Positions 1-18,498 of a stretch of DNA of 20,000 bases are shown piece after piece. Positions within the stretch are counted from its first letter, which is position 1, and each line of letters begins with the position of its first letter. This DNA is from an uncultured virus (IMG/VR IMGVR_UViG_3300006169_000035). Taxonomy: Duplodnaviria; Heunggongvirae; Uroviricota; Caudoviricetes. Where the stretch lies: the IMG/VR virus record IMGVR_UViG_3300006169_000035. The stretch is one strand, 5' to 3'. The position numbers and the translations under genes are program-made. The notes under the pieces were generated by a model. The model was not told where the DNA came from and made no database searches. It saw nothing but the letters and a program-made list of their open reading frames with translations.

Positions 1-617
1 CCCTTCTTCTTCCCACTCTTCTTCTTCACGCTCTGCCTCTTCTTTCCGCGCCAGCCAGGTTCGATCCGATCGGCGATCGCGGCACAGTAGGCACCGGGAT
101 CGGAAACCTTCTTCTTCCCGCGGCGCTTGCTGACCTTCTTGATGCAGCCGCTGACGCTGCCGCCGGGCATCTCCTTCATCGGGTTGCCCTTGCGACCTCG
201 CTTCTTGCGACGCGGGTTGTCCTCGGAGTACGCCGCGCTCACCAGCGCCTCTTCGAGCATCGCGTAGGGCTCTTCGAGCTCCTTGCGGAGGCACGACGAT
301 ATCTTCTGCCAACGGCGCTCGGTGGCATCGGGGTAGAACTCGTCCCATCTGCCATCCCAGATCCCGACGCCTTCGCCGGCGAGTGTCGCGTAGACGTCGT
401 ACGCGGTCCCCGGATCGTTGAAGAGCCGCGACGTGTTTCCCTTCGGAGGGAACTTCTTGAAGCAGGACTTGAGCGCTTCCTGGACGCTCTCCTCGAAGTA
501 GACCGATGCGTCCCGTACCTCGTCAGGCATGCTGACCCGCTTGTCCGCGAGACCGTCGAGGACGAACTGCGCCCAGTCTTCAGGCGCATACTCCGGGTTC
601 TTCTTCTTGCGTGCCAT
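1..617 (-). CDS. Basic hypothetical protein with NP motifs, running off the window edge (missing from the ORF track)
   Basis: ATG at 617, 2 nt after the upstream stop, and the frame stays open to base 1: MARKKKNPEYAPEDWAQFVLDG...SEDNPRRKKRGRKGNPMKEMPGGSVSGCIKKVSKRRGKKKVSDPGAYCAAIADRIEPGWRGKK. Confidence 0.85.
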   Translation of the reverse strand, partial: MARKKKNPEYAPEDWAQFVLDGLADKRVSMPDEVRDASVYFEESVQEALKSCFKKFPPKGNTSRLFNDPGTAYDVYATLAGEGVGIWDGRWDEFYPDATERRWQKISSCLRKELEEPYAMLEEALVSAAYSEDNPRRKKRGRKGNPMKEMPGGSVSGCIKKVSKRRGKKKVSDPGAYCAAIADRIEPGWRGKKRQSVKKKSGKKK

Positions 618-619
618 CC

Positions 620-925
620 TCATTTCCCTTCGGCGTAGTCGCGAGCTTCTTGCAGGGATCCTACAACAAGAGGCCTGCCCGACGACGGCTCGAGCTGCCA
701 GCGTCCGTCTTCGAGTTCGTAGGTGACCCACGTGGTCCCGTTGATCCTGACGGTTAGCGCGTGGCCAAGCGGAGCCTGAGCGTGATCGATCCTCGACCAC
801 TGCAGACGCCTGGGGTTCCGCTGTCGTTGCTCCGGTCGCCGCACGAGCCTGTAGATCCCGTAGCTCACAGCTGCAACGCCGAGAGCTGCGCCTCCTGCAA
901 CGAGGATCTTCGTGGTGCGCGTCAT
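620..925 (-). CDS. Small membrane-anchored protein
   Basis: N-terminal hydrophobic helix ending SYGIYRLVRRP, then RQRNP and a short beta-rich domain; fits the operon packing. Confidence 0.85.
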   Translation of the reverse strand: MTRTTKILVAGGAALGVAAVSYGIYRLVRRPEQRQRNPRRLQWSRIDHAQAPLGHALTVRINGTTWVTYELEDGRWQLEPSSGRPLVVGSLQEARDYAEGK

Positions 926-929
926 GGGA

Positions 930-1313
930 TCAGATCGGTGGCAGCACTTGGCTAGGTGTGACGCGACCGGGACATCCTGAGAGGCAGACCGCTGCGCCCA
1001 TCTGCGCAGCGATCCACTTGCGAGCCTTGTCGCTCGCCTTCTCGGCGGTCTTCGCTGAGAAGACGCGGATCATCGCGCCGTCGAGATAGACGAGCGCCCA
1101 GTACGGCCTGCCGAACGGCATGCGCTGCACTCGGTACTCGTAGGTCGCTCCGGGCAGCCCGAGTCCGCCCTCGGGCGTGTCGCTCGCGGCCGTGGGTCGC
1201 GTGAGGCGGTAGATCCCGTAGCCGATGAGGCCCGCTCCTGCGAGCCCCCCGATCGTCAGCACAGCGATCTGTGCTCCGCTCGGGTTCTTCTTCCTTCGTC
1301 GTCTGCGTGCCAT
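930..1313 (-). CDS. Small membrane protein with polybasic-NP leader (127 aa)
   Basis: Start revised to ATG 1313 (upstream GAAGGGAG RBS). MARRRRRKKNPSG, then a TM helix ending GYGIYRLTRP. Confidence 0.85.
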   Translation of the reverse strand: MARRRRRKKNPSGAQIAVLTIGGLAGAGLIGYGIYRLTRPTAASDTPEGGLGLPGATYEYRVQRMPFGRPYWALVYLDGAMIRVFSAKTAEKASDKARKWIAAQMGAAVCLSGCPGRVTPSQVLPPI

Positions 1314-1326
1314 GGTGCTTCTCCCT

Positions 1327-1542
1327 TCAGGTCCCGATGACATCTTCGGGACCGGCCCAGTTCTCGCCGGGGATGAGGACTCCGGTCTCGATCGCCTTGT
1401 TGAAGAGACGGTTGCATCCCCAGCCGGCGAGGACGAAGCCTCCGACTCCGCCGACGAGTACCGCTGCGCCCATCAGCAGACCCGTTTCGAGTCCGGTGGG
1501 ATTTCTGCGACGTCGACCGCCGCGTCTGTTTCGCTTGGCCAT
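1327..1542 (-). CDS. Small membrane protein with polybasic-NP leader (71 aa)
   Basis: MAKRNRRGGRRRRNPTG followed by a Gly-rich TM helix; GAAGGGAG RBS upstream. Confidence 0.85.
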   Translation of the reverse strand: MAKRNRRGGRRRRNPTGLETGLLMGAAVLVGGVGGFVLAGWGCNRLFNKAIETGVLIPGENWAGPEDVIGT

Positions 1543-1564: not shown

Positions 1565-1795
1565 TCAGCTCCACGTGTCCGGAACGCCGTAGTCGGGCTC
1601 CATCGGGAAGTCGTCGGTGCGTTCGTCGAAGCGCTTCTGCGCGTCGTCGACCATCTTCGTCCCCTTCTTGATCCCGTAGATCATGACGCCTCCCACGATG
1701 AGCGCTGGGACCACGACGCCGAGGGTGACCCCGATCGCGACCCATGCTCCCGTGCTGAGGTTCTTCTTGCGCTTGCGTCTTCGTTTGCCTGCCAT
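1565..1795 (-). CDS. Small membrane protein with polybasic-NL leader (76 aa)
   Basis: Start revised to ATG 1795 (TGATG overlap with the upstream stop). MAGKRRRKRKKNLSTG followed by a long TM helix. Confidence 0.85.
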   Translation of the reverse strand: MAGKRRRKRKKNLSTGAWVAIGVTLGVVVPALIVGGVMIYGIKKGTKMVDDAQKRFDERTDDFPMEPDYGVPDTWS

Positions 1796-2820: not shown

Positions 2821-3818
2821 GCTGCACCTCCAAGCGTTCGCTTGTTGTAGTAGCTCTGATTGGCGACGGTCCCGAGGAGCTGCACGGCCGTCCAAGCCTT
2901 CCACTCGGCGCCCCCGTACGCGTACGGCGAGAGCCCCTGCGACCAGTCCGAGCTCGGCACGAGCTGCGTCAGGATCCGACCGATGGCCGCGTCTCGATCC
3001 GCTGCCTTCGACCAGTCCACGCCGTTGCCGATCTGCACGAGCGCAAGCTCGTACACGGCTCGAGTATGCTCGGGCGTGAGGCCGGTGATCAGCGTGGAGA
3101 TCGCCTTGGGATCGACGTTGGTCGACAGCGAGTAGGTGCCGCCTTCGTCGACGAGCACCACATGCGTGTCGTCGAGCAGGCCGTCCGAGCCAACAACTCC
3201 GAACATCGCGCCGGCGGGCGACTCGACTTGTCCGGCGACGAGGACGTTGAGCACCGGCACGGTCTCGTACTCTTCGAAGTTCGCCTCCGGTGTCTGGACC
3301 ATGATCGGCTGTTGGATGTCGAGCATGACGTACGGCACGTCGCCGATCGTGGTCGAAGCGCCAAGGATGCTCGCGACACCTTCCCCGCCTCCAGGAAGCT
3401 GAGCTCGCCGACGCTGCACGAGACGATAGGCGCCGTAGCCTGTCGCGGCCGCAAGAACGCCTCCTCCGAGCGCGAGCAAGATCGTCGAGCCCGCAGGGTT
3501 CATGCGGGGGTTGCTCTTCTTGCTGTCGGGGCTGAAGCCAGCGAGGTAGCCACCGAGTGCCGCGCCGATCGGACCGAGGAACACGCCGCCGAGGCCACCG
3601 CCGATCGCACCTCTGCGCTTCCTGTCGTCCTTGGCTCCGTAGTAGCCGCCGAGCGCTGCTCCGCCTGCCCAGCCGACCCACGTCACGACGGCTCCGAAGC
3701 CCTTGGCTCCGAGCGCCATCAGCAGGTGACCTGGGATCCCGCCGATGATGCTGCCGATGAACGCTCCGAGGCCGGAGTGGTTGTTGACGGGGTTCTTCCT
3801 CTTGCGTCTGCGGCTCAT
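2817..3818 (-). CDS. Multi-module membrane protein: glycine-zipper region, second NP/TM module, soluble domain
   Basis: MSRRRKRKNP, GxxxG-rich hydrophobic helices, KKSNPRMNP, then a TM helix ending GYGAYRLVQRRR; ATGA overlaps at both ends. Confidence 0.88.
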   Translation of the reverse strand: MSRRRKRKNPVNNHSGLGAFIGSIIGGIPGHLLMALGAKGFGAVVTWVGWAGGAALGGYYGAKDDRKRRGAIGGGLGGVFLGPIGAALGGYLAGFSPDSKKSNPRMNPAGSTILLALGGGVLAAATGYGAYRLVQRRRAQLPGGGEGVASILGASTTIGDVPYVMLDIQQPIMVQTPEANFEEYETVPVLNVLVAGQVESPAGAMFGVVGSDGLLDDTHVVLVDEGGTYSLSTNVDPKAISTLITGLTPEHTRAVYELALVQIGNGVDWSKAADRDAAIGRILTQLVPSSDWSQGLSPYAYGGAEWKAWTAVQLLGTVANQSYYNKRTLGGAA

Positions 3819-3973
3819 GCTCCACCTCCGAGCGCTGCGCTCTTCTTCTTGCGGGACTTGTAGGCCAGGATCCCGCCGGCGACGACGAGCCCAACCGTGA
3901 GACTCACGGGTAGCAGCCAGGGGCTGACCCCGAGCTTGTAGTTCTTGCGTCTGCGTTTGCGCTTGCCTGCCAT
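3815..3973 (-). CDS. Small membrane protein with polybasic-NY leader (52 aa)
   Basis: Start revised to ATG 3973 (TGATG overlap). MAGKRKRRRKNYKLG, a TM helix and a basic tail. Confidence 0.8.
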   Translation of the reverse strand: MAGKRKRRRKNYKLGVSPWLLPVSLTVGLVVAGGILAYKSRKKKSAALGGGA

Positions 3974-4392
3974 CACGTCACCTGATCGTATTTGTCGACG
4001 AGGATCGCGAGCGCTTGCTCGCGGGTGGCCGTAGGCCAGAAGCCATCGACCACGAGACCTTTGAGGTTGCTTCCGGTTGCGACCACGACGTAGTTGCACG
4101 GCGGATCACAGACGTCGGAAGGTGAGCGGAGCTTGAGGATCCGCCACGCGAACTTGAACCCTTGCGGCCCTTCGACGTCGTAGAAGCCGACGTCGTCGAG
4201 ATCCCATCCCATGGGGAACGAGCTCACCTCGGGCATCGTTCCCTCGAGCCGTTCTTCCCACCACTGCTTGGGCTGCTCGATCGCCTTGGGGCGGCTCAGC
4301 ACACGCACGAGCAGGACGGCCGCCGACGCAGCGACGACGCCGGTGCCGATGAGCGCGGGGATGAACCAGGTCGGGTTACGTCGCCGAGTCAT
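3973..4392 (-). CDS. Membrane-anchored protein with RRRNP leader
   Basis: MTRRRNPTWFIPALIG... TM helix, then a soluble domain; TGATG overlaps. Confidence 0.85.
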   Translation of the reverse strand: MTRRRNPTWFIPALIGTGVVAASAAVLLVRVLSRPKAIEQPKQWWEERLEGTMPEVSSFPMGWDLDDVGFYDVEGPQGFKFAWRILKLRSPSDVCDPPCNYVVVATGSNLKGLVVDGFWPTATREQALAILVDKYDQVT

Positions 4393-5147
4393 CAGTGGAT
4401 GAGCCCCCTCGGATGCAAGTCGAGCTCGCCTCCGTGAATGATGATGATGTTCGGGACGGTGCGGTCGGTGTCCTGCCAGATCCAGACGTCGTACCAGTGG
4501 TTGTGGATGTACTCCTGCGCTTCGAGCTTCGCGGGATCGGGATCAGCGTCGTTCCACTTGTCCGACGCGTAGCTCAGACTGTCGGCTGCGCCGATCGCCT
4601 TCACGCTGACGTCTGGGATCCCGACGGTCAGCAGGCACTGCGGGTCGCGCTGATGCCAGCTGCGGTAGAGCTCGACGCTCTCCCACATGGAGTCCGGGAT
4701 CGGGTTGCACTCCTGCGGGTAGGGCTGGTTCGGCATCGCGTAGAGCATCTTGCGGCCGTTGTCCCACCACAGCAGAGGCGGATGGTTGCGATCGAGCTCA
4801 CGAACCTGCAGACGACCTCGCCGATCGAGGAACACGTACTCCACGAGGACACCGAGATCGATGAGCGGCTTCTTCGGCATGGGCGCCTTGCCGCCGCCGG
4901 GCCAGTGGCACACGCCGTCGCTACAGCGCTTCCAGGTCTGCTTGCCGGTCTGGTTCCACCGAAGCGTGATCTCTCGCCACGCTGCCCGACGAGCCAGATC
5001 CTTCTTCCCGTAGACGTCGAGGCCCTCCTCGTACGCCTCGTCCCACTCCTCGCGCACCGCATCTGGCAGCGTTCGAGGGGATGGATCCGGGGGATCGTGG
5101 ATCGACGGCAGCGCGTTGCGGCGTCGCTTTGGGACCTTCGAAGGCAT
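4392..5147 (-). CDS. ChaB-like N-terminal domain fused to an unknown beta-rich domain
   Basis: Residues about 27-74, LPDAVREEWDEAYEEGLDVYGKKDLARRAAWREITLRWNQTGKQTWKR, match the ChaB pattern LP..A..++..AFN.A...Y.....A...AW..V...Y......W. Leader is KRRRNA. Confidence 0.7.
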   Translation of the reverse strand: MPSKVPKRRRNALPSIHDPPDPSPRTLPDAVREEWDEAYEEGLDVYGKKDLARRAAWREITLRWNQTGKQTWKRCSDGVCHWPGGGKAPMPKKPLIDLGVLVEYVFLDRRGRLQVRELDRNHPPLLWWDNGRKMLYAMPNQPYPQECNPIPDSMWESVELYRSWHQRDPQCLLTVGIPDVSVKAIGAADSLSYASDKWNDADPDPAKLEAQEYIHNHWYDVWIWQDTDRTVPNIIIIHGGELDLHPRGLIH

Positions 5148-5648: not shown

Positions 5649-6278
5649 TCACGCGTACGCAGCCGAGCGACCGACGGCGGCAAGAACCGCATCGATGCCC
5701 GGCCAGTGGTAGTTGCTGCGGATTGCCCTCTTGAACATGAAGTTCGGATCGATGCCAGCGCATTCGAGACCGCGTGCGAGTTGCGATCGGTAGCCGGGAT
5801 GATCGACATCGTCGGTGTCGGTCGGGTAGCCCCAGCAGCGGCGGAAGGCGAGCCAGTCGAGCTCCTGGCCCTCGTCGCCAAATGGGATGCACCGATGGAT
5901 GTACCACGCCGCGAGAGCGGTCGCGGTCCACGGATCCTTGAGCGCTGACGCAGGCAGCCCAAGATCGTAGACCCGAGCAGACTCGGGCCGCATGCCGTAG
6001 AGGCCACGGGCCGCGTTGCCGGAGTCCGATCCCGCGTTCGGATTGCCGCGGCTCTCGATCCAGGCGACGCCGGAGAGGAAGTCGCCGAGGCCGTCGAGGT
6101 TCGTGATCCGCTCGATCGGCTTGGCCATCTCGTGGATGAGCGCGGGCGCACCCGGATCGACCCATCCTCGGCAGAGCTGCGGAGCAGCATCGGGCAACAG
6201 GGCGTATACGCCGGTGCCCACGAGCGCCGCGACGCCAACGCCCAGAGCTCCGTACGCCGCCCACTGCGGGATCTTCAA
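5649..6278 (-). CDS. Membrane-anchored lytic transglycosylase (SLT/lysozyme-like fold)
   Basis: N-terminal TM. Catalytic motif WIESRGNPNA (Glu75), ARGLYGM (GLMQ-like), LKDP and AAWY motifs. TTG start with GGGAGG RBS and TTGA overlap. Confidence 0.85.
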   Translation of the reverse strand: MKIPQWAAYGALGVGVAALVGTGVYALLPDAAPQLCRGWVDPGAPALIHEMAKPIERITNLDGLGDFLSGVAWIESRGNPNAGSDSGNAARGLYGMRPESARVYDLGLPASALKDPWTATALAAWYIHRCIPFGDEGQELDWLAFRRCWGYPTDTDDVDHPGYRSQLARGLECAGIDPNFMFKRAIRSNYHWPGIDAVLAAVGRSAAYA

Positions 6279-7014: not shown

Positions 7015-7917
7015 TCAGACCCCTGGCAGCTCCACTCCCGACATGTCGATGCCGAGTCTCATGATCGCAGGCGGGGGATGAAGCGTGCTCGAGCCGTCGC
7101 TCCACGCCCCGAAGCGGATCGAAGGCATCGGGTTGTTCGGTGACAACGCGGCGAGGTCGAAGGCAGGCATCCACACCAGCATCTGCCGGCTGCCGCGGGA
7201 GCCCGGCAGCGAGCGTCCTGCCACGCTCGTCGTCCTCCTGAGCGAGCGTCCCGACTGGATCCGATCGAGGTTGTCGGCGTGTCGCGGCAGCCAGTTGAGC
7301 CCGCGACCCTCCGCGTTGAGCACGTAGGCGCCGGAGAGTGGTCGCGCCGGATCGCCGCCGGGCTTGTTCGGATCGTTGCCGCCGGCGAGGTTGAGGTTGC
7401 TCTGTCCGTAGAGCAGATCGTTGATGCCACCGACGACCATGATCGCATCGCGGGTCTCTCGTCGCAGACGTCGCCCAAGGGACGCGTTTGCTTGCTGACC
7501 CTCAGCGGCCGCGATCGATGGATCGTTGCCCGCCATCGCAAGCGCAGATCCGAGAAGGGCCCGCACCATGCGGTCATACCCCCACGATGGCTTGAAGGGT
7601 CCGCTCGCGTCGCCGGCGTTGAACCACGTCGATGGCGTCGGGTAGTTCTCGTAGTGCAGCGCCGGGAACTCCCACGGGTATCCCGGGTCGTCAGGCGTGA
7701 CGATCTCCCACGCTGTCGACTCGTCGGAAGGCTCGTCGTCCTCCTCGTCGCTCTCGCCATCGTCGACGTCAGGCAACCGCGGGCCGAGCGGCTCTTCGGC
7801 AGTCGCCCTCCTGCGACGCGATGCAGCGTACGCAGCTCCGCCTAGACCGAGTACGAGCGCTCCCGATCCGATCATGAGCACCCACTGCGTGGGCGTCGGA
7901 TTTCGTCTACGCCTCAC
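7015..7917 (-). CDS. Membrane-anchored protein with RRRRNP leader (300 aa)
   Basis: Start revised to GTG 7917 (GTGA overlap, GGAGGT RBS). MRRRRNPTPTQWVLMIG..., TM helix, acidic linker, soluble domain. Confidence 0.85.
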   Translation of the reverse strand: MRRRRNPTPTQWVLMIGSGALVLGLGGAAYAASRRRRATAEEPLGPRLPDVDDGESDEEDDEPSDESTAWEIVTPDDPGYPWEFPALHYENYPTPSTWFNAGDASGPFKPSWGYDRMVRALLGSALAMAGNDPSIAAAEGQQANASLGRRLRRETRDAIMVVGGINDLLYGQSNLNLAGGNDPNKPGGDPARPLSGAYVLNAEGRGLNWLPRHADNLDRIQSGRSLRRTTSVAGRSLPGSRGSRQMLVWMPAFDLAALSPNNPMPSIRFGAWSDGSSTLHPPPAIMRLGIDMSGVELPGV

Positions 7918-8675
7918 TCCACCTCCCAGAAGTTGTTCCAAGCGTACCAGCCGTCCTCGAAGTCGTAGATCCCGATCCCGAGACGCACCATGAGGTAGTC
8001 CCACCAGAGCTTGAAGTTCGGGTTCTGCTTGAGCGCCTGCTTGTTGAGCGGGTCGGGACACCGAGGCATGCGTGCCTGCATCTCGGCGAGCTCGGCGTAG
8101 ATCCGTGATCCGATCTCGCGAATCGAGTCCTCTTCGAGAGGAACGTCGTCACGCGCGTAACGAGCGACGAGGCGCGCGACGTAGCCCCAGGCGGTTCCGG
8201 TCTGACCGGTTGGGCTGACGTATCGCAGCGCGTCGGCCAGCGTGGCCTGTGCAGACGGCCCTCCGTTGACCGGCATCCACCAGTTGCCCCACTCCTGGTA
8301 GCCGGGCACCGGCAAGAAGAGACGACCTTCCGCGATCACCTTGCAGTCCGGACTGATGTAGACGAGGTTGCCGTTCCAGTCGAAGTCGCGCGGGATCCCA
8401 CCAGCTCCGTACTGTCCGCCTCCCCATCCCTTCTTGCGCGGCGGAGGACCTTGGTTGTCCGGGCCCGGGATGATCTCGCCCGATCCAGGGATGTCCGGAT
8501 CGATGTCGGGCTCTCGCTCGCCAGGTGGCAGCACGGGACCGATCGGCTCTTCGCCGGCACTCTTCTTCCGGCGGCGCATCGCGTACGCTCCGCCGGCAAT
8601 GCCGAGTCCGAGCGTGCCAGCGGCAACGAGGATGGCCCACTGAGTGGGCGACGGGTTTGGCAGACGCAGTCTCAT
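7914..8675 (-). CDS. Membrane-anchored protein whose N-terminal anchor is paralogous to 7015..7917
   Basis: MRLRLPNPSPTQWAILV..., TM helix, Pro/Gly linker, aromatic-rich domain; ATGA overlap. Confidence 0.85.
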   Translation of the reverse strand: MRLRLPNPSPTQWAILVAAGTLGLGIAGGAYAMRRRKKSAGEEPIGPVLPPGEREPDIDPDIPGSGEIIPGPDNQGPPPRKKGWGGGQYGAGGIPRDFDWNGNLVYISPDCKVIAEGRLFLPVPGYQEWGNWWMPVNGGPSAQATLADALRYVSPTGQTGTAWGYVARLVARYARDDVPLEEDSIREIGSRIYAELAEMQARMPRCPDPLNKQALKQNPNFKLWWDYLMVRLGIGIYDFEDGWYAWNNFWEVE

Positions 8676-9109
8676 GCTGGACCTCTGTCGTTGATGGGGC
8701 AGATCTCGGTGCTGATGAGCGCCTTGCGAGCCACGAATCCGAGTTCGGAGAAGAGCTGCGAGGCGGTGGGGTGATCACCCGTCACGGGCGGCCAATCGAA
8801 GTCAGGGTATAGCTCGCGAGCCATGCACAGACGGATCTCGTTGGTGAGTTCGTCGATCGTGGTCGTTTCGCTTGCCGCCTTCACGAGAGGGGCTCCGCAC
8901 TCGCAGACGAGTTCGTCGAGGACCTCGAACTGCTCCTCGCTGTAGGGCATCTCGACGGCGTACGATGGATCGGGAAGGCGGTAACCCTCCTTGTCGATCG
9001 CGGCGAACGCCTTGCGACCGATCCTGCTACCGGCGACCAGGTATCCGACAGCTCCGCCGATGACGACGCCAGCTCCGATCCCGAGTGCGAGCTTGAGCTT
9101 TGGGTTCAT
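8672..9109 (-). CDS. Membrane-anchored protein starting MNP
   Basis: MNPKLKLALGIGAGVVIGGAVGYLVAG, then a helical domain; ATGA overlaps and GAGGAG RBS. Confidence 0.85.
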   Translation of the reverse strand: MNPKLKLALGIGAGVVIGGAVGYLVAGSRIGRKAFAAIDKEGYRLPDPSYAVEMPYSEEQFEVLDELVCECGAPLVKAASETTTIDELTNEIRLCMARELYPDFDWPPVTGDHPTASQLFSELGFVARKALISTEICPINDRGPA

Positions 9110-9765
9110 CGATCTCTCCTCACCGGCACGACCACGCCTTCAGAAGTGCGTGCCCACGCGCTGCCGTTGCTCGAACGCTGGATCTGGCTGACGAGCACTC
9201 GCCGGCCGTGGAGGCCCGGAATCGGAGCGCAGCGCCACACTCCGTGCTCGTCGACCGCACAGATGTCGTCCTCCTCGCACACGACGCGTCCATCCTCTAT
9301 GTGGCAAGCGGATCCCTCGACCGGGTTGCTCGCCACCGGGATCGGACTGCGTCGTCCTTCGAGGAAGTTGGCCGTCGGGTCGATGGCATCGGTCTCGGTT
9401 ACGAATACGCCGTGAAGATCGTCGTCTCCTTGCGAGACTGCGACGCACAGCGTCCGCACGCCATACTTCTCCTCGACGACCGCTGCTTCGAACGCCGCCG
9501 CATCGCCACATGAGAAGGTGCGGCGCTGGACCATCTCTCGGTAGCCGTAGATGTTCATGATCGGCTGCCCGTACTCGTCGAGGCGATGCTGCTCGGGGAG
9601 GTAGCGCAGGTCGAGCTCGCCGACGGTGTCGGGTACGTGAAGGCCCTCGGCGAGCATCGCAGCGATCACGGCGCGGTTGTCTCGCTTGACGATCTCCATG
9701 AGTTCGCCGAAGCGATTTCTCATCGCGTCGCCCTCGGGCATGCACATGTGGAGCGTGATCTTCAT
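9106..9765 (-). CDS. Transglutaminase-like (papain-fold) Cys-His-Asp enzyme, putative maturation protease, with a C-terminal Cys-containing repeat
   Basis: TFSCGDAAAFEAA (Cys86 at a helix start), DLHGVFV (His118) and AIDPT (Asp129) have the order and spacing of the transglutaminase-like catalytic triad. Confidence 0.72.
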   Translation of the reverse strand: MKITLHMCMPEGDAMRNRFGELMEIVKRDNRAVIAAMLAEGLHVPDTVGELDLRYLPEQHRLDEYGQPIMNIYGYREMVQRRTFSCGDAAAFEAAVVEEKYGVRTLCVAVSQGDDDLHGVFVTETDAIDPTANFLEGRRSPIPVASNPVEGSACHIEDGRVVCEEDDICAVDEHGVWRCAPIPGLHGRRVLVSQIQRSSNGSAWARTSEGVVVPVRRDR

Positions 9766-9771
9766 CGGTGA

Positions 9772-10713
9772 CTAGACGTTGAGGATCTGAACGACGCTGA
9801 CGTACGTGTCGTCGCTTTCGATGGTGCGCCTGACGAGGAAGGCGTTGGCGTTGCCTGGGATCGTCGTGCGTGGGAAACGGCTCGAGCCTGTCGGAACCAC
9901 CACGGTGTCGAGCACGAAGAACGGAGGGAACGGGGGACCAAAGAGCACCTCGGCCACCCCGTTGGGAGCCGTGGCCCAATCCGGCACGTAGACGAAGTCG
10001 AGCATGACAGTCGCTCCGTCCGCTGCAATGGCATCGATCCCGCCGGTGACATCGACGCTGTCAGCGACTCTCGGGATCAGCCACGACGCTTGCGCCTCAC
10101 CTGCGAGGATGACGGGCACCGTGTACGTGAGCGGGTTGTGCTGCCTCGCCGATCCGAGCGTGAAGTAGACCGACGATCGCAGGAGCGTTTCGAGCTGCAG
10201 CGGTCCGGGATCGTCGCCGATAGGATCTGGTTCGTTCGGAATGTCGACCCGTGGATCGGGCACGAGCACTTCGATCTTCTGAACCGAGTACGCGGCTACG
10301 TCGAACTCGACGCCCGCGCTGACGTCGAAGTCGATGTAGCGAACGCGCGACGTTCCCATCGCGAGCGTGAGTCGAGCCTTGAGCAAAGAGCTGCGACTAC
10401 CTCGCGTACGGATCGCTGACGGAGACAGCACGGATTCGTCGACGGGATGTGCGACCTCGCCGTCGACACTCATGCTGATGTGCTGCCACTTGCCGAAGGG
10501 AGAGTTCTGGGCGACGCGCTCGTCGCCCATGTGCAAGATCGACGCGTTGCCCGAGTGCGGAGCGCTCGGACTGCTGTCCTTGACGAACGTGAGCGACCCG
10601 AGCTCAGGCGTCCTCGGCTCCTGCAGCACCCACCGGAACGCGTACGGACTCACGAGCGGCACCCGTACGAGGTACAGGTACGAGTCGGGCGAGAGTGGAT
10701 TGCAGATCCCCAT
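9772..10713 (-). CDS. Beta-strand-rich protein, candidate capsid/vertex protein (possibly two jelly-roll-like domains)
   Basis: 313 aa with no TM helix and alternating hydrophobic strands in two blocks separated by a Pro/Asp linker. The CDS is clear; the fold is an inference. Confidence 0.55.
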   Translation of the reverse strand: MGICNPLSPDSYLYLVRVPLVSPYAFRWVLQEPRTPELGSLTFVKDSSPSAPHSGNASILHMGDERVAQNSPFGKWQHISMSVDGEVAHPVDESVLSPSAIRTRGSRSSLLKARLTLAMGTSRVRYIDFDVSAGVEFDVAAYSVQKIEVLVPDPRVDIPNEPDPIGDDPGPLQLETLLRSSVYFTLGSARQHNPLTYTVPVILAGEAQASWLIPRVADSVDVTGGIDAIAADGATVMLDFVYVPDWATAPNGVAEVLFGPPFPPFFVLDTVVVPTGSSRFPRTTIPGNANAFLVRRTIESDDTYVSVVQILNV

Positions 10714-12155
10714 CAGCGATTCCCGGAGAAGAGCTTGCGCTTGCGTGCGCTCTGGTATCGATTCCGAAGATCAGGGTTTCGCATAGGACCCGCGTGGCGA
10801 ACTCGCAGAGCTCCTCCGCTTGCCCCTCGACGGCCCTCGTCGCAGCCGCTGCACGGATGCCCGTGCGCACAGTCGTCGCAGCACGGCTCCTTCGGAGGGC
10901 AGTTGCACTGAACGCACTGCATCGTGCTCGTGTCGAGCAGTGTGCCCGGCGGACACTTCGGACACGTCGGCGGGGGCACGCAGGCTCCGTTCGGATCGCG
11001 CCACATGCCGGGCGGGCACGGATCGAGTTCGGGCGGACACTCGGGCGGCTCGTGGCACGTCCCGTCAGGACTGAGGAACTGCCCCGGAGGACACGTCGGA
11101 CAGTCGGGGCATAGCTGCGGAGGCGGGCACCGCTGACCGCACGTCGGGATCCGCGTCCCGTCGGCGTAGACGCCCCACGTGTAGCCGTCTTCCATGACGA
11201 AGTCGGTGACCTCGGCCGGCGTTCCGTTGAGCTCGGGCTTGCCCGGACAGACGAGCGTCAGAGTCTGCAGGTTCACGCAGCAGAAGACCGGAGGACACTC
11301 GTCGGTCCCCGGGCAAAGCGGCATGCGAGCGCCGCCGCCTTGCCACACGGCCCAGACGTAGATCTGCCCGTCTGCGCTGACCCACGAGGCGACGATACCA
11401 GCCGCCGCGCCGTCGAGCTCGTTGCCGGGACACACGATCGTCTCCGTCGTCGGGTCGTAGCAGCAGTCGACGACCGGATCGTCGCAGATCGGAAACGCCA
11501 TCGTGCTGTTCTCCGGAGCGAAGTCCGGGCTCATCACGATCGCCAGGATCGATCCATCGGCCTGGGGCTGCATCGCGAGCAAGCTGACCTTGAGGCCGTT
11601 CCACTCGCCATCGCAACGCAGTGTGCCCGACGCGACGTCGTAGCAGCACTGCTGCGGAGTTCCAGGCGGGGGGATCAGATCGGGCGGCTGAGGACAGCTC
11701 AGGAAGAGGAACTCGTTGTCGCCGGTGTGGACCTCACACCAGCGATTTTGCTCAGCAGTGTCGTCGGTGTAACAGGTGATCGTTTCGAGCGGCACCGTGC
11801 GACCGTGCATGTACGAGTCGGCAGCGCCTTGCGGACACGTCACCAGGCCCGTTCTCTCGTCGACGCAGCACGTGGGCGGCAGATCGGTTCCCGTCGGCGT
11901 GGTCAGCCACGGATCGTCGTCGGCGCACAGGGGGAAATAGGCCTCCTGGTTTGGCAGAGACGGATGACGCACCAGCGCTCGACCAGTCGCAGCATCGATG
12001 CCGATCAGCTGCACGGCGACTCCGTTGAGCGGGTCGGATGGATCGCCTACGAGCGTGCCGCTGACTGCGTCGTAGCAGAGCTCGGGATTGCTGGCGCGAG
12101 CTCGCATCGCGTCGTACCAATGCTCCAACTCGGACTGGGTTCGTCGTCTTGCCAT
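10713..12155 (-). CDS. Cys-rich repeat protein (five ~60-aa repeats plus a CPPG-repeat tail), candidate spike/surface protein (480 aa)
   Basis: Start revised to ATG 12155 because the longer start lies inside the terminator. Repeats begin LCYD, CCVD, CCYD, CCYD and CCVN. NP motifs sit near both ends. Confidence 0.8.
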   Translation of the reverse strand: MARRRTQSELEHWYDAMRARASNPELCYDAVSGTLVGDPSDPLNGVAVQLIGIDAATGRALVRHPSLPNQEAYFPLCADDDPWLTTPTGTDLPPTCCVDERTGLVTCPQGAADSYMHGRTVPLETITCYTDDTAEQNRWCEVHTGDNEFLFLSCPQPPDLIPPPGTPQQCCYDVASGTLRCDGEWNGLKVSLLAMQPQADGSILAIVMSPDFAPENSTMAFPICDDPVVDCCYDPTTETIVCPGNELDGAAAGIVASWVSADGQIYVWAVWQGGGARMPLCPGTDECPPVFCCVNLQTLTLVCPGKPELNGTPAEVTDFVMEDGYTWGVYADGTRIPTCGQRCPPPQLCPDCPTCPPGQFLSPDGTCHEPPECPPELDPCPPGMWRDPNGACVPPPTCPKCPPGTLLDTSTMQCVQCNCPPKEPCCDDCAHGHPCSGCDEGRRGASGGALRVRHAGPMRNPDLRNRYQSARKRKLFSGNR

Positions 12156-12266: not shown

Positions 12267-13100
12267 TTAGTACATCCCCCGCTGACGACGACCCCACGGC
12301 GACCCGTAGAACGGGTTGTTCACCGCTCCGTTCGCCGCCGACATCACCGGAGCCGGCATCGGAGGCGCGACCTGGGGACCGTAGCCGGGAATCGGCTGCG
12401 GGAACCCGGGCACCCACTGGGCGCTCGGGATCACCGACGGCTGCGGGATCAGTCCGGGCGGCCACGGGAAGCAGCCGTCGAACTCGAGCCGATCACCGAC
12501 GATGATCATGTTGAACAGCGGGATCGTGCTGAGCGTATCGACCGGGTCGAACGTCAGCAGGAGCGGCGCCAGGTTGGAGAAGCAGCCGAAGTCGAACGGG
12601 CAGTAGCAGTCGGTCGTGTCGAAGAACGCCACGTCGATGCCGGACCCGGGACACAGCTGATCCCGCGTATCGAACCCGCTCACGATGCTCGTGAGGATGA
12701 ACGTGTTCGGAGGGCTGAACGTCCTCGCGCCACAACCGTTGAAGAACGTGTTCCCGCAGCTGATCTCCAGCGTGACGGGAGACAGCGTCTCCGGCTGCAC
12801 GACGACGCCGAGCAGCGCGTTGGGCTGCAGATAGGGCGCCTGCGTGTTGTAGGGCAGACCTGCGAAGGGGCTCGGAACGAACCCGGACGCACATCCACCC
12901 CAATCGGGCCCGCAACCAGCCATCGCACCCGCCTCGGCACCCTGGGGCACCGCGGGGGCCTGCTGCTGCTGCTGCTGCATCGCCGCCGGCTGACCCGCGA
13001 GCGCGCCATACTGCGCACCGCGGGGGATCTGACCCTGCACCAGGCGACGCTGGGCGACCTGAAGCTGCTGGGCCACGGAAGGAACTCTGCTGCGATTCAT
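12267..13100 (-). CDS. Candidate major capsid protein with one central jelly-roll-like beta domain, a Gln-rich N-arm and a Pro-rich C-arm
   Basis: Central ~115 aa beta-strand pattern (VTLEISC...FILTSIVSG...QL...IDVAFF...LLLTF...FNMIIVG). It is the second gene of the operon and is followed by a strong terminator, as is typical of abundant structural genes. The function is an inference. Confidence 0.5.
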   Translation of the reverse strand: MNRSRVPSVAQQLQVAQRRLVQGQIPRGAQYGALAGQPAAMQQQQQQAPAVPQGAEAGAMAGCGPDWGGCASGFVPSPFAGLPYNTQAPYLQPNALLGVVVQPETLSPVTLEISCGNTFFNGCGARTFSPPNTFILTSIVSGFDTRDQLCPGSGIDVAFFDTTDCYCPFDFGCFSNLAPLLLTFDPVDTLSTIPLFNMIIVGDRLEFDGCFPWPPGLIPQPSVIPSAQWVPGFPQPIPGYGPQVAPPMPAPVMSAANGAVNNPFYGSPWGRRQRGMY

Positions 13101-14140: not shown

Positions 14141-15784
14141 GTGAGGTACCGTTGCGACGTGGCCGACGACGACGAACTCAAGATCACCGCGGAACCCCAC
14201 TGGCCCATCCCGAGCAGAGAGCGACTGCGGATGGCGAATCCAGGCCATCGCCTGCGTTCGCAGTTCCGCCGTCATCACCGAGGCCTTCGCGAGATTCGAC
14301 TCACCGTGTTCTCGATGACAACACGAGACGGCACCGAGCACGGAGGCGAGATCCAGAAGTTCACGCTCGACACAGGAGAAGGAGAAGTGCCCGAGGTCGA
14401 GTACACCGAACTCGCTCAGCTGACGTGGCTTCGGGGCGAGCGATACGTACGAAGTCACAAGGCCAAGACTCAGTTCCGCGTGCTCTTCATCAAGCGCGAC
14501 GCCAAGGGTGCCCGCGATCAGAAAGAGTGCCGATTCATGATCAAGCCGACACAGGTCCTCGAAGACGACCTCGAAGCTGATGACGACGGTGACGGCACGG
14601 ACGACGACGAGGAGGAGTACGAAGAAGAAGAGGACGGCGAGTACGAGGACGACGACGGCGATGACGAGGACGTCGAGGACAACGAGTACGAGGACGACGA
14701 TGAGGACGACGACGACAGTCCGAGCGCGTTGGTTCCGCTCAAGGAGCGGGAGACCAAAGATGGCATGCAGCTAGTCCCGCAGCAGATCAACCCAGCGTTC
14801 ATCACCGCAGTTCAGAGAGACACGCTCAAGCTTGCCCATCGTGCTTACACGAGCCCGATGAAGGAGAACCGAATCCTCGTCCGTCAGATGCGGCGCGAGA
14901 CCGGGAAGATGGTCGACAAGGTCCAGAACATGGCCGAGATGCTGCTGACGCAGCAAATGGAGATGGCAGCACGCAGCGAGGCACGACAGGACAAGATCAT
15001 CGAGCACCTCTACGACAGGCTCGAAGTGATGGAGGGCACCGTTACCCGTTTGACCGAGCTGTCTGTCAAGGATCGAGAGAACCTCAAAGAGCTCGCTCGC
15101 GAGGGGTGGAGAGCATTCCACGATGCGATGCGCATGAAGGAGGAAGTCGTCAACGATCGGGTCGCGTGGGCTCGATGGGTCATGGAGGACAACGAGCGCC
15201 GCGAACCTCCACCGCCTCCTCCAGCGTCAACAGGCGGCGGCTTCATGGATCTGATCACCAAGGCACAGGAGTCTCCGATGGTGGTTGCGATGGCTTCGAT
15301 TGCTCTTCGCAAGATGGGCAACGATCGCGAGGCCGATCTACTCGAAAAGATCGCGGTGAACATGTCGGGCGCCGATGAGGAAGAGGACGCCGCTGATAAG
15401 GATCCCGTCGATGTCGACGCCACCGAGCGTCCCAACGGTCACGCACGCCACGCTCGACAAGCCGGTCCGCTGGGCGTCAGGATACGAGCGTTTCGCGACA
15501 GCGTCGGAGACGAACGGCTCGAGAAGCTCAAGTCGATCATGCCAAAGGAAGCGTGGTCCTCCTTCGAGCTGGCGTGCCGAGCTCCAGACGACAAGATCGT
15601 CGTGCAAGCCCTGACCGCGATGGCGACCCCTCTCGACGACATGGGGATCAAGATGAAGATCGCTGGCGTGCTGACGCCCGACCAGATCACCGAGCTGTTG
15701 TCGATCGTCGATGCCGTGAAGCAGTCCGGTGCTCGCCGAGAGCCGCCGCGACGACCTCCTCCACGTCCCGATCCGCAGCCGTAG
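14141..15784 (+). CDS. Large hypothetical protein with a long Asp/Glu tract, coiled coil and helical C-terminal domain
   Basis: 547-aa open frame with protein-like composition. The start is uncertain (GTG 14141 or ATG 14231). Confidence 0.82.
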   Translation: MRYRCDVADDDELKITAEPHWPIPSRERLRMANPGHRLRSQFRRHHRGLREIRLTVFSMTTRDGTEHGGEIQKFTLDTGEGEVPEVEYTELAQLTWLRGERYVRSHKAKTQFRVLFIKRDAKGARDQKECRFMIKPTQVLEDDLEADDDGDGTDDDEEEYEEEEDGEYEDDDGDDEDVEDNEYEDDDEDDDDSPSALVPLKERETKDGMQLVPQQINPAFITAVQRDTLKLAHRAYTSPMKENRILVRQMRRETGKMVDKVQNMAEMLLTQQMEMAARSEARQDKIIEHLYDRLEVMEGTVTRLTELSVKDRENLKELAREGWRAFHDAMRMKEEVVNDRVAWARWVMEDNERREPPPPPPASTGGGFMDLITKAQESPMVVAMASIALRKMGNDREADLLEKIAVNMSGADEEEDAADKDPVDVDATERPNGHARHARQAGPLGVRIRAFRDSVGDERLEKLKSIMPKEAWSSFELACRAPDDKIVVQALTAMATPLDDMGIKMKIAGVLTPDQITELLSIVDAVKQSGARREPPRRPPPRPDPQP

Positions 15785-17299: not shown

Positions 17300-18256
17300 T
17301 CAGGACACCGCGGACACGACCTCGATGAGCCGCTTGGCGAGCCGCGGGCCCACGGAGTTGCCGATCCCCTTGATCGTGTTCTTGCGCGTCGCCTTGGGCC
17401 AGAAGTAGTCGTCGCGGAAGCCCATCGCTCGCGCGTTCTCGCGGATCGTCAGCGGCCGGTACTCGTCGTCGCGGCAGACAAACCACTGATCCTTGGTGGT
17501 GATCGTCCGGATCGGCTCGTCGAGCGGAACGAGGCCGCCGCCGTCGCCGACGTGCTGCCCGATGAAGCGGCGCCCGAGCTTCGCGCGACCGCGAGCGATC
17601 CGATCCTTCACGGCCGGCGTCGCGTTGCGCACGGCGGTCCAGGGGACGTCGGCGTCCCAGTCGATGCACGGTCCGAACGCGGGCTCGATCGAGAGCACGC
17701 GACGGCGGTTGCTGGCGTCGACCACGGGCAGACCAAGCTCGACGGGCTTGCGGGTCGCGACTACGAACAGGCGATCGCGGCGCTGCGGCGTGTCGAAGTG
17801 CGACAGGCGCAGCACGAGCTCCTGCACGTGGTACCCGAGATCTTCGAGGCAGCCGCGCCAGCGCGGGTAGAGCCGCCAGTTCCGGAAGTCCTCGACGTTC
17901 TCGACGATGATCGACTTGGGCAGACACGTGTCCGCGCAGCCGACCACGGCCCACGCGGTCGCGCGGAGCTCGTCGTGGTGGACGCGCACGCGATCCGTGT
18001 TCGCACGGCTCGGGTGAGCCGCACGCGAGTGTCCTTGGCACGCCGGGCTCGCGAGCAGCAGATCGAAGTCCGGCAGGCGGCTGTAGTTCGTGTCGCCGCC
18101 GAGTTCCTGGCAGGAGTGCTTCGTGCCCGGATGGTTGACTGCATGGGCGTCGACGGCGAGCTGCCAGTGGTTGGCTGCCCACACGACCTCGACGCCTGCC
18201 ATGCGTGCGCCCTCGGAGAACCCTCCCCAGCCCGCGAACAGATCGACGGCTTTCAT
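17300..18256 (-). CDS. DNA (cytosine-5) methyltransferase (318 aa)
   Basis: Motif I DLFAGWGG, IV SPACQ, VI ENV, VIII QRRDRLF, IX RPLTIRENARAMGF, X GIGNSV. Start revised to ATG 18256 (ATGA overlap). Confidence 0.95.
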   Translation of the reverse strand: MKAVDLFAGWGGFSEGARMAGVEVVWAANHWQLAVDAHAVNHPGTKHSCQELGGDTNYSRLPDFDLLLASPACQGHSRAAHPSRANTDRVRVHHDELRATAWAVVGCADTCLPKSIIVENVEDFRNWRLYPRWRGCLEDLGYHVQELVLRLSHFDTPQRRDRLFVVATRKPVELGLPVVDASNRRRVLSIEPAFGPCIDWDADVPWTAVRNATPAVKDRIARGRAKLGRRFIGQHVGDGGGLVPLDEPIRTITTKDQWFVCRDDEYRPLTIRENARAMGFRDDYFWPKATRKNTIKGIGNSVGPRLAKRLIEVVSAVS

Positions 18257-18498
18257 CGCGTCACCGCCTTCTCGCCTTCGAGGCAAGCGCGGAAGATCTC
18301 GTTCATCTCGTCTTCGCCGAGGCTGAGTTCGACCTCGCGCGGCGCGTAGGTGGCGAGCTTGAAGCTGCAGTGCGCTCGCACGAGCCAACGCTTGCCACCC
18401 ATCGGATACGGATCCGTTCCGCGAGGGAACTCCAGCAGCTTCCACACGCATGCGTCGTTCTCGACGAGCATTTCACCTGAGCGAGCAGTGACCAGCAT
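18253..18498 (-). CDS. Small hypothetical protein
   Basis: Its stop overlaps the methyltransferase start (ATGA); the start could be 18498 or 18471. Confidence 0.65.
   Translation of the reverse strand: MLVTARSGEMLVENDACVWKLLEFPRGTDPYPMGGKRWLVRAHCSFKLATYAPREVELSLGEDEMNEIFRACLEGEKAVTR

Follow-up and report, generated by a model that had tools for sequence, protein, structure and literature searches.

The uncultured virus IMGVR_UViG_3300006169_000035 (IMG/VR) is represented here by a stretch of 20,000 nucleotides, the window, that carries an operon with a gene for a 219-amino-acid (aa) enzyme at positions 9106..9765 of the minus strand. Positions are those of the window, and its features lie on the minus strand unless the plus strand is given. 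The open reading frame, its homologs and an AlphaFold2 (AF2) model define a cytoplasmic protein of two domains. Residues 1–145 (9331..9765) form a catalytic domain of the transglutaminase-like (papain-like) type, as delimited by structural matches and conservation of the catalytic triad. Residues 150–219 (9109..9318) form a small beta-rich module, as delimited by conservation and the AF2 model. The translated reading frame places the triad at Cys86 within FSCGD (codon 9508–9510), His118 within LHGVF (9412–9414) and Asp129 within IDPT (9379–9381).

The ATG of the enzyme gene is found 6 nucleotides past the stop codon of the upstream gene, which encodes a 313-aa protein. The enzyme stop codon overlaps the start of the next gene (ATGA), whose product begins MNPKLKL. 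The enzyme has no signal peptide, and its N-terminus shows neither a hydrophobic stretch nor the polybasic leader ending in Asn-Pro (NP) that is seen on other proteins of the operon.

A New Sequence Family of Transglutaminase Fold

A search of 5.8 billion clustered proteins yields 35 homologs of the enzyme at E ≤ 0.01, which are 45–74% identical to it, nearly all metagenomic and located on contigs of up to 176 kb. C86, H118 and D129 are invariant in all 35, as are S85 and P130. In a deeper set of homologs (n = 32, down to 25% identity), C86 and H118 are present in every sequence and D129 in 31 of the 32. Exhaustive searching with HMMER through 1.84 billion representatives finds just 20 relatives at E ≤ 1e-3; some are short-form enzymes of 141–184 aa, which have the N-terminal domain and nothing else. 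Altogether, the family numbers at least 55 proteins.

The AF2 model of the enzyme, built on the 35-sequence alignment, has a mean predicted local distance difference test score (pLDDT) of 93.0 and a predicted template modelling score of 0.86. DSSP assignment shows Cys86 as the first residue of helix 86–101, His118 in strand 117–122, and Asp129 directly after the next short strand. This is the arrangement characteristic of the superfamily, with Cys opening a helix and with His and Asp in or after consecutive strands. The N-terminus of the model is a single helix packed against the core.

Structural comparisons give modest scores, and the list of matches is consistent. With Foldseek, the best row in the PDB is the transglutaminase TGase 4xz7 (E 0.062), followed by LapG and CPR-C4. 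A second structural search, of 48,161 chains, puts seven of them at Z ≥ 5, without any score of 8 or above. The named top rows are the pseudomurein endoisopeptidase PeiP (8z4f; Z 5.6, root-mean-square deviation (rmsd) 3.8, 101 residues aligned), TglA (9crn; Z 5.6), 3kd4 (Z 5.5) and PeiW (8jx4; Z 5.4). Next are TGase 4xz7 (Z 4.6), LapG (Z 4.5–4.9) and TgpA (Z 4.5), and further rows include arylamine N-acetyltransferases, factor XIII, TG3, PNGase and Rad4/XPC. Chains from axonemal maps, none of them named, take up four of the top eleven places. The matches cover residues ~28–141 of the enzyme, and thus all three triad residues. A look-up in the ESM Atlas, based on a separate model, returns clusters with PF01841, PF04473 or PF06035 and small viral proteins, at TM scores of 0.40–0.53 by query. 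No adenain-type or other clan CE fold is among the listed structural rows, which does not by itself imply exclusion of such folds.

Because the match lists consist almost purely of transglutaminase-like and papain-like cores that span the whole triad, the predicted fold is accepted as transglutaminase-like/papain-like at the superfamily level. A first-pass annotation, made from the letters of the DNA, had proposed a transglutaminase-like enzyme with this triad, translationally coupled to its neighbours and itself leaderless. The triad is upheld by the translation and by its invariance in the 35 homologs, the coupling by the ATGA overlap with the MNPKLKL gene, and the absence of a leader by the N-terminal sequence. 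The fold check it suggested, by AlphaFold and Foldseek, recovers the transglutaminase-like class with modest scores, and two structure aligners and the independent atlas look-up agree on it.

Sequence comparisons by themselves place the enzyme nowhere. Pfam gives no family for the 219-aa protein at E ≤ 0.1, including Transglut_core (PF01841), and nothing relevant at E ≤ 1 for 18 distant homologs. There is no Pfam domain in any of the 35 close homologs, nor a precomputed one in any of the 38 proteins retrieved with the family profile. PHROGs has no informative match, and a sequence-profile search of the PDB gives no match (best E 0.34). The family profile, run against the 5.8 billion proteins, returns family members alone. 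Searches by tblastn find no relative in 50,697 phage and 72,556 plasmid records, and scans of IMG/VR with long-form and short-form enzyme alignments find none. A first scan of reference genomes also returned no relative; a second scan, with a closer short-form alignment, returned three loci. A literature search gave no paper that joins double jelly-roll, transglutaminase and metagenomes. Since there is no Pfam, PHROG or PDB sequence match, the enzyme is a new sequence family of known fold, restricted to uncultured elements.

The C-terminal module (residues 150–219) has four near-invariant cysteines, at positions 154, 163, 169 and 179, and is lacking in the short-form homologs. A profile of the module matches residues 42–118 of a Cys-rich, spike-like protein encoded at another enzyme-bearing locus, L005 (E 2.7e-6 in a small database; BLAST 1e-4). 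At L005 the enzyme is of the short form while the spike-like protein carries the module match. The profile matches the window's own Cys-rich protein weakly (E 0.08; hhalign E 0.022), and the spike-like protein of locus L007 opens with the same C.I..DGRV.C hairpin. Structural rows for the module are weak and are of the SH3/Tudor-like and SH3b/SlpA-like types (Z 2.3–3.0). The recurrence of the module at the N-terminus of the L005 spike-like protein suggests a shared particle-attachment element. The module common to the enzyme and the spike-like protein may thus serve in attachment to the particle, or in surface binding. Related sequence is also seen in P0053, a metagenomic protein of 3214 aa whose domains are of the HYR, beta-helix and immunoglobulin-like types; nine of its stretches match enzyme residues 130–185.

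The Virion-Type Module around the Enzyme

The 313-aa protein encoded directly upstream (9772..10713) has the N-terminus MGICNPLSPD and resembles a capsid protein of the two-jelly-roll type, as judged by its AF2 model and structure searches. The model (pLDDT 83.3) shows two beta-sandwiches with ~19 strands in two blocks. PRD1 P3 is the sole full-length structural match (residues 2–313; Z 6.8–7.0, 210–215 residues aligned, rmsd 6.1–6.4). The major capsid protein of STIV is matched by Foldseek at E 7.1e-4 and 1.1e-3, with TM scores of about 0.2–0.25, and single-barrel structures score equally or higher. These features are consistent with a double-jelly-roll capsid protein and fall short of proof; an atlas look-up of the protein was uninformative. 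Of 21 aligned homologs, 16 carry its N-terminal motif, M-x(1-3)-CNPL[ST]PD (10696–10713 in the window), and Pro6 and Pro9 are invariant.

Downstream of the enzyme, the coupled gene (8672..9109) encodes a 145-aa membrane protein, with MNPKLKL followed by a Gly-rich transmembrane segment; the assignment is based on the ATGA overlap and on orthologs. The second conserved neighbour (7015..7917) is a 300-aa membrane-anchored protein that starts (GTG)RRRRNPTPTQW, has orthologs in L001, L003, L005 and L007, and gives no PDB sequence match. Upstream of the capsid-like gene is that of the Cys-rich repeat protein, of ~480 aa from MARRRTQSE (10713..12155), a spike-like and variable member of the module with homologs in L007, L008 and L009. 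It has four ~50-residue repeats of the type CC.D..TG.L.C...G..W...G..[IV]P.C, followed by a CPPG-rich tail.

Loci L001 and L003 are from metagenomes, and L007–L009 are 3–8 kb contigs of two Gemmatimonadota metagenome-assembled genomes (MAGs). The window, L001 and L003 keep the same gene order: a 204-aa membrane protein, a 277-aa protein, the variable Cys-rich protein, the 313-aa protein, the enzyme, the 145-aa and ~300-aa transmembrane proteins and a 119-aa protein, and then, with other genes between, the 251-aa and 333-aa proteins. The short-form loci L005 and L007–L009 retain a core of the spike-like protein, the 313-aa type, the enzyme, and homologs of the 145-aa and 300-aa proteins. The order of capsid-like protein, enzyme and 145-aa transmembrane protein is fixed at enzyme identities down to 32%, with the upstream gene visible in seven of nine loci and the downstream gene in all nine. 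Orthologs of the 145-aa protein follow the enzyme in L001–L005 and L007–L009 and are its most constant neighbour. Relative to L001 and L003, the enzyme is 50–51% identical versus 32% for the capsid-like protein.

Other genes of the region fit a virus with an internal membrane. A lytic transglycosylase of the SLT type with an N-terminal transmembrane anchor is encoded within the operon (5649–6278; Pfam E 8e-7), and a C5 cytosine DNA methylase is found downstream at 17300–18451 (Pfam 2e-36; PHROG 116, 6.5e-63). L001 and L003 encode a DUF927 primase-helicase and a UvrD-like helicase, and the operon holds about a dozen small Gly-rich transmembrane proteins. The 277-aa protein (12267–13100), which is conserved in L001, L003, L005 and L009, combines an N-terminal arm rich in Gln (QQQQQQ) with a C-terminal part that is Cys-rich and predicted to be of beta structure; it is a candidate for a penton or a second capsid protein. 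A Walker-A scan of the window and of the 20-kb stretches L001–L005 gives no packaging ATPase, and P-loops are present solely in the primase-helicases. A conjugation or type IV secretion operon was considered and ruled out, as Pfam shows no VirB4- or VirD4-type ATPase among the large open reading frames of the loci.

Several further observations concern the viruses and their possible hosts. Four enzyme-bearing contigs measure 167,478, 168,729, 172,068 and 176,152 bases, lengths close enough to hint that they are complete genomes of ~170 kb. Such a genome would be unusually big for a virus whose capsid protein is PRD1-like. The Gemmatimonadota MAG contigs L007–L009, with the same gene order, are a possible clue to the host, and one close homolog of the enzyme is labelled as from a Gammaproteobacteria MAG.

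Polybasic N(P) Leaders

Many proteins of the operon begin with a run of Arg and Lys that ends in Asn or Asn-Pro. In order from the enzyme, such leaders are VRRRRNP on the 300-aa protein (7897..7917), MPSKVPKRRRN on the 251-aa protein (5115..5147), where ALP follows and there is no transmembrane helix, MTRRRNP (4372..4392), MAGKRKRRRKN (3941..3973), MSRRRKRKNP (3789..3818), MAGKRRRKRKKN (1760..1795), MAKRNRRGGRRRRNP (1498..1542), MARRRRRKKNP (1281..1313) and MRMARKKKNP (594..623). The last is on a soluble protein; the six from MTRRRNP to MARRRRRKKNP are each joined to a transmembrane helix, and most leaders of the window directly precede one. The soluble 251-aa protein (4392–5147) shares 46–50% identity with its L001 and L003 orthologs, and part of it weakly resembles ChaB (Pfam E 0.029, a sub-threshold match).

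The leaders are enriched well beyond expectation. In six frames of the window, [RK]3+N occurs 11 times versus 3.3 ± 1.8 in 200 dinucleotide shuffles, and [RK]3+NP occurs six times versus 0.26 (maximum 3). Nine of the 11 [RK]3+N occurrences are N-termini of minus-strand operon genes. With gene starts set by hand, [RK]3+N is found inside the first 25 residues in 9 of the 21 operon proteins. NP is found inside the first 20 residues in 11 of the 21, versus ~9% expected per gene from the rate in the rest of the same proteins (binomial 5.7e-7). Lys and Arg interchange in the leaders, and selection therefore acts on the peptide. A twin-arginine signal is ruled out, as the leaders have no hydrophobic residues after RR.

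L001 and L003 have the same leaders, with arginine blocks often flanked by NP on both sides. An extreme case is a 128-aa protein of L003 (14048–14434, plus strand), where the tandem blocks NP-R7-NP, NP-R7-NP and NP-R5GKR5-NNP-RKKN precede one transmembrane helix. A non-basic start of 22 residues comes before these blocks, and they are thus not strictly N-terminal. The NP-bounded arginine blocks of L001 and L003 resemble excision sites. Across lineages, the constant feature is [RK]n-N alone, and a subsequent Pro is frequent but not fixed. Orthologs of the 145-aa protein start with MTRRHKYRRNP (L001), MRKRRRNVINP (L003) and MTRQRN (L002), and those of L004, L005, L007 and L008 have no leader. 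Counts of leaders before a hydrophobic stretch per ~20-kb locus are 7 in the window, 5 in L001, 11 in L003 and 1, without NP, in L005.

Divergent from the operon is a gene (14141–15784, plus strand) for a 547-aa protein with a run of ~50 Asp and Glu residues. Orthologs in L001 (4323–6068, minus strand) and L003 (2865–4793, minus strand) keep the acidic run. A possible role for this protein is to serve the poly-arginine leaders as counter-ion, chaperone or scaffold.

The first-pass annotation had placed the enzyme inside a structural operon amid NP-tagged neighbours. Both points hold, by virtue of the adjoining PRD1 P3/STIV-like two-jelly-roll protein and of the shuffle and binomial tests. It had also proposed a check of whether the enzyme and the NP leaders occur together; the association proves loose, as the triad is intact in the L005 and L007–L009 loci.

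Possible Functions and Known Systems

The gene, its fold class, the conservation of its triad, its position and the enrichment of leaders around it are established. The enzyme is a new variant of the transglutaminase fold in a conserved, otherwise unannotated virion-type module. Beyond this, we infer hydrolase rather than transferase chemistry, association with the particle, and any action on the leaders. In the reading that is tentatively favoured here, a two-part cytoplasmic thiol enzyme, with a Cys86-His118-Asp129 catalytic domain and a four-cysteine beta module common to its spike-like neighbour, would be a core member of the particle-building module in uncultured viruses with a PRD1 P3-like two-jelly-roll capsid. 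The enzyme would hydrolyse, as a peptidase or isopeptidase, the virus's own particle proteins during assembly, and its C-terminal module would carry this maturation protease onto or into the particle. As substrates, the [R/K]n-N(P) leaders on the membrane proteins and the CNP motif at the N-terminus of the capsid-like protein would be the prime candidates.

That the enzyme is such a maturation-type peptidase is possible, if short of probable; that it cleaves the NP leaders specifically appears unlikely. In favour of maturation, proteases of transglutaminase-like fold exist, and the enzyme is predicted to be cytoplasmic, the side on which the basic leaders are expected. Perhaps these are large membrane-containing phages with a maturation system of their own, where an enzyme docked by a spike module cuts at Asn-Pro boundaries, frees a dozen membrane proteins of arginine-rich peptides and shortens the capsid protein at its CNP N-terminus. 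This scenario is speculative and we regard it as improbable in its full form. If true, it would be a non-homologous counterpart of the adenovirus protease and the protamine-like mu peptide. We know of no maturation protease in the prokaryotic members of this branch of the virus realm.

Several points weigh against maturation, and above all against processing of the leaders. No result shows cleavage by the enzyme, and in this respect the first-pass annotation, which stands as to fold class, module position, coupling and leaders, finds no backing. The 3–8 kb loci L007–L009 have no leaders and L005 has no NP leader, yet the enzyme with an intact triad is retained in all of them. Among orthologs of the 145-aa and 300-aa proteins, the leader is present, altered or missing. 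The leaders are lineage-specific and the enzyme is not. The bond before a proline is a poor site for most endopeptidases, and self-cleavage at Asn-Pro, or no cleavage, accounts for the NP motif equally well. The catalytic domain is acidic (median net charge −7), but the argument that this acidity tracks the basic leaders had to be dropped, since the domain is also acidic at L005 and L009, where leaders are few or absent. No sequence profile ties the family to any known peptidase family, and the structural scores are modest: no Foldseek row in the PDB is at E ≤ 0.001, and re-scoring of the Foldseek candidates, which agrees with the other search, gives a best Z of 5.9 (3kd4). The best-matching solved enzymes of known substrate include wall isopeptidases.

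The last point leads to the closest competitor of maturation, a particle-associated or lytic cell-wall peptidase that cuts host wall cross-links at entry or lysis beside the SLT transglycosylase of the operon, in the manner of PeiW and PeiP. Both Pei enzymes rank high in the structural comparison (PeiP Z 5.6, PeiW Z 5.4), the transmembrane-anchored SLT-domain protein is in the same operon, and the Cys module, with its weak SH3b/SlpA-like rows and its presence in the spike-like protein, would fit surface or wall binding. A wall peptidase also needs no leaders, and therefore fits their absence in the short-form loci. However, the Pei matches are within 1 Z unit of non-lysin relatives, and the profile comparisons are not significant. 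The hhalign comparison with a four-sequence Pei alignment gives E 0.24 over another region; that with PeiP weakly aligns C86 to Cys213, which is invariant in the Pei alignment (E 0.019, probability 2.5%). There is neither a wall-binding repeat nor a Pfam match, the catalytic domain is acidic, and a fixed capsid-adjacent place with high conservation would seem atypical of lysis cassettes. On balance this function is doubtful, yet the choice between it and maturation is close to a toss-up. Maturation is ranked first because the gene is fixed beside the capsid-like gene across deep divergence and is conserved equally well or better.

It might also be that the leaders are not substrates of the enzyme at all. 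They could self-cleave at Asn-Pro, or stay in place as basic arms that contact DNA, acidic lipids or the 547-aa poly-acidic protein, with the enzyme having an unrelated role, e.g. as a deamidase or acyl-transferase on a host protein. The lineage-specific distribution of leaders but not of the enzyme, the variable Pro after [RK]n-N and the conserved poly-Asp/Glu protein encoded beside the operon all agree with this, and arylamine N-acetyltransferases and Legionella effectors of the same fold are among the structural matches. Autocleavage at Asn42-Pro43 of the reovirus and aquareovirus outer capsid is documented (PMC9148132). Known Asn-Pro self-cleavage needs a folded context, but the leaders here are short and probably disordered; moreover, a location between the genes for the capsid-like protein and for particle membrane proteins points to a function connected with the particle. 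The proposal is rather unlikely. Least probable is a true transglutaminase or transpeptidase that cross-links the particle, joining Gln or Asn side chains to Lys, or protein to lipid amines. TGase 4xz7 is the best Foldseek row, the factor XIII and TG2/TG3 cores are matched at Z 3.4–3.9, the 277-aa protein offers a QQQQQQ arm, and several leaders combine many Lys residues with an invariant Asn. Nothing here separates a transferase from a hydrolase, but many leaders, those of L003 above all, consist of Arg without Lys and therefore provide no acyl acceptor. The solved examples LapG, CPR-C4 and Pei are hydrolases, as are most bacterial transglutaminase-like proteins of known function.

Among known systems, the pseudomurein endoisopeptidases PeiW and PeiP of methanogen phages (C71, PF12386) are similar to the enzyme in being phage-encoded, with a Cys-His-Asp triad and a transglutaminase-like core. 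They are described as phage-encoded Cys-His-Asp endoisopeptidases (PMC2989375, PMC4592898). The structural likeness (Z 5.4–5.6) extends over 99–101 residues, and in both cases a catalytic domain is combined with a second module. The differences are several. The extra module of the enzyme is C-terminal and Cys-rich, not N-terminal, and Pfam detects no pseudomurein-binding repeats (PF09373) in the enzyme, whose N-terminus is the single packed helix. The host here has murein, as indicated by the SLT gene in the operon, and not pseudomurein, and the enzyme gene is beside a capsid-like gene and not in a lysis locus. Since the comparisons with the PeiP and Pei-alignment profiles are not significant, the enzyme is filed in no sequence family. 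If it is a wall isopeptidase, transglutaminase-fold lysins of the PeiW/PeiP type would extend from archaeal to bacterial viruses.

LapG/Peptidase_C93, CPR-C4, 3kd4 of the BDI_1141 type and the periplasmic domain of TgpA are of the same fold class and triad order (Z 3.6–5.9). These bacterial transglutaminase-like proteases are likewise small stand-alone catalytic domains, and the look-alikes in the atlas (PF01841, PF04473, PF06035) are comparable. Unlike the LapG-type proteases, which are periplasmic, the enzyme is predicted to be cytoplasmic, is virus-encoded and has no Pfam match.

Other systems resemble the leaders and not the enzyme. YscU and FlhB autocleave at NPTH, and several leaders here read NPT. 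In reovirus mu1 and aquareovirus VP5, Asn42-Pro43 is near the N-terminus of a particle protein and a short peptide is released, as described in PMC9148132. Both of these self-cleavers are enzyme-free and depend on a folded domain, whereas the motif here follows a disordered poly-basic run. The parallel with Prp concerns the proposal as a whole. This host cysteine protease trims a common N-terminal motif from the capsid and scaffold proteins of phage 80alpha, such that one cysteine protease acts on short common-motif leaders of several particle proteins; it differs in being host-encoded and in its fold and motif.

Adenain-type proteases (AVP of adenovirus, PRO of polintons and virophages) provide a possible functional analogy, i.e. 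a cysteine enzyme in a morphogenetic module with a two-jelly-roll capsid. The likeness includes arginine-rich peptides flanked by a short repeated motif, and adenovirus pre-mu is a comparable arginine-rich peptide. The catalytic order of adenain (clan CE) is His-Glu-Cys, whereas that of the enzyme is Cys86-His118-Asp129. Because fold and catalytic order differ, the two are not homologous, and the adenovirus comparison drawn in the earlier annotation is retained as an analogy alone. The gene-content comparison in PMC4405056 describes a protease common to polintoviruses, virophages, adenoviruses and Megavirales, and its account of tectiviruses names as shared genes just the two capsid proteins, the ATPase and pPolB. 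In eukaryotic double-jelly-roll viruses, a cysteine protease for maturation belongs to the common set of morphogenetic genes. As the tectivirus list includes no protease, one encoded at this place would form a notable parallel without homology.

Either way, the enzyme family is absent from Pfam, PHROGs, sequenced phages and plasmids, and it marks a conserved module (spike-like protein, capsid-like protein, enzyme and two membrane proteins) seen just in metagenomes and two Gemmatimonadota MAGs. If maturation occurs, the NP-bounded arginine blocks would be viral propeptides or DNA-condensing peptides of a novel type. Prokaryotic double-jelly-roll viruses would then gain, from a different fold, a particle-maturation step that has so far been documented solely in their eukaryotic relatives.

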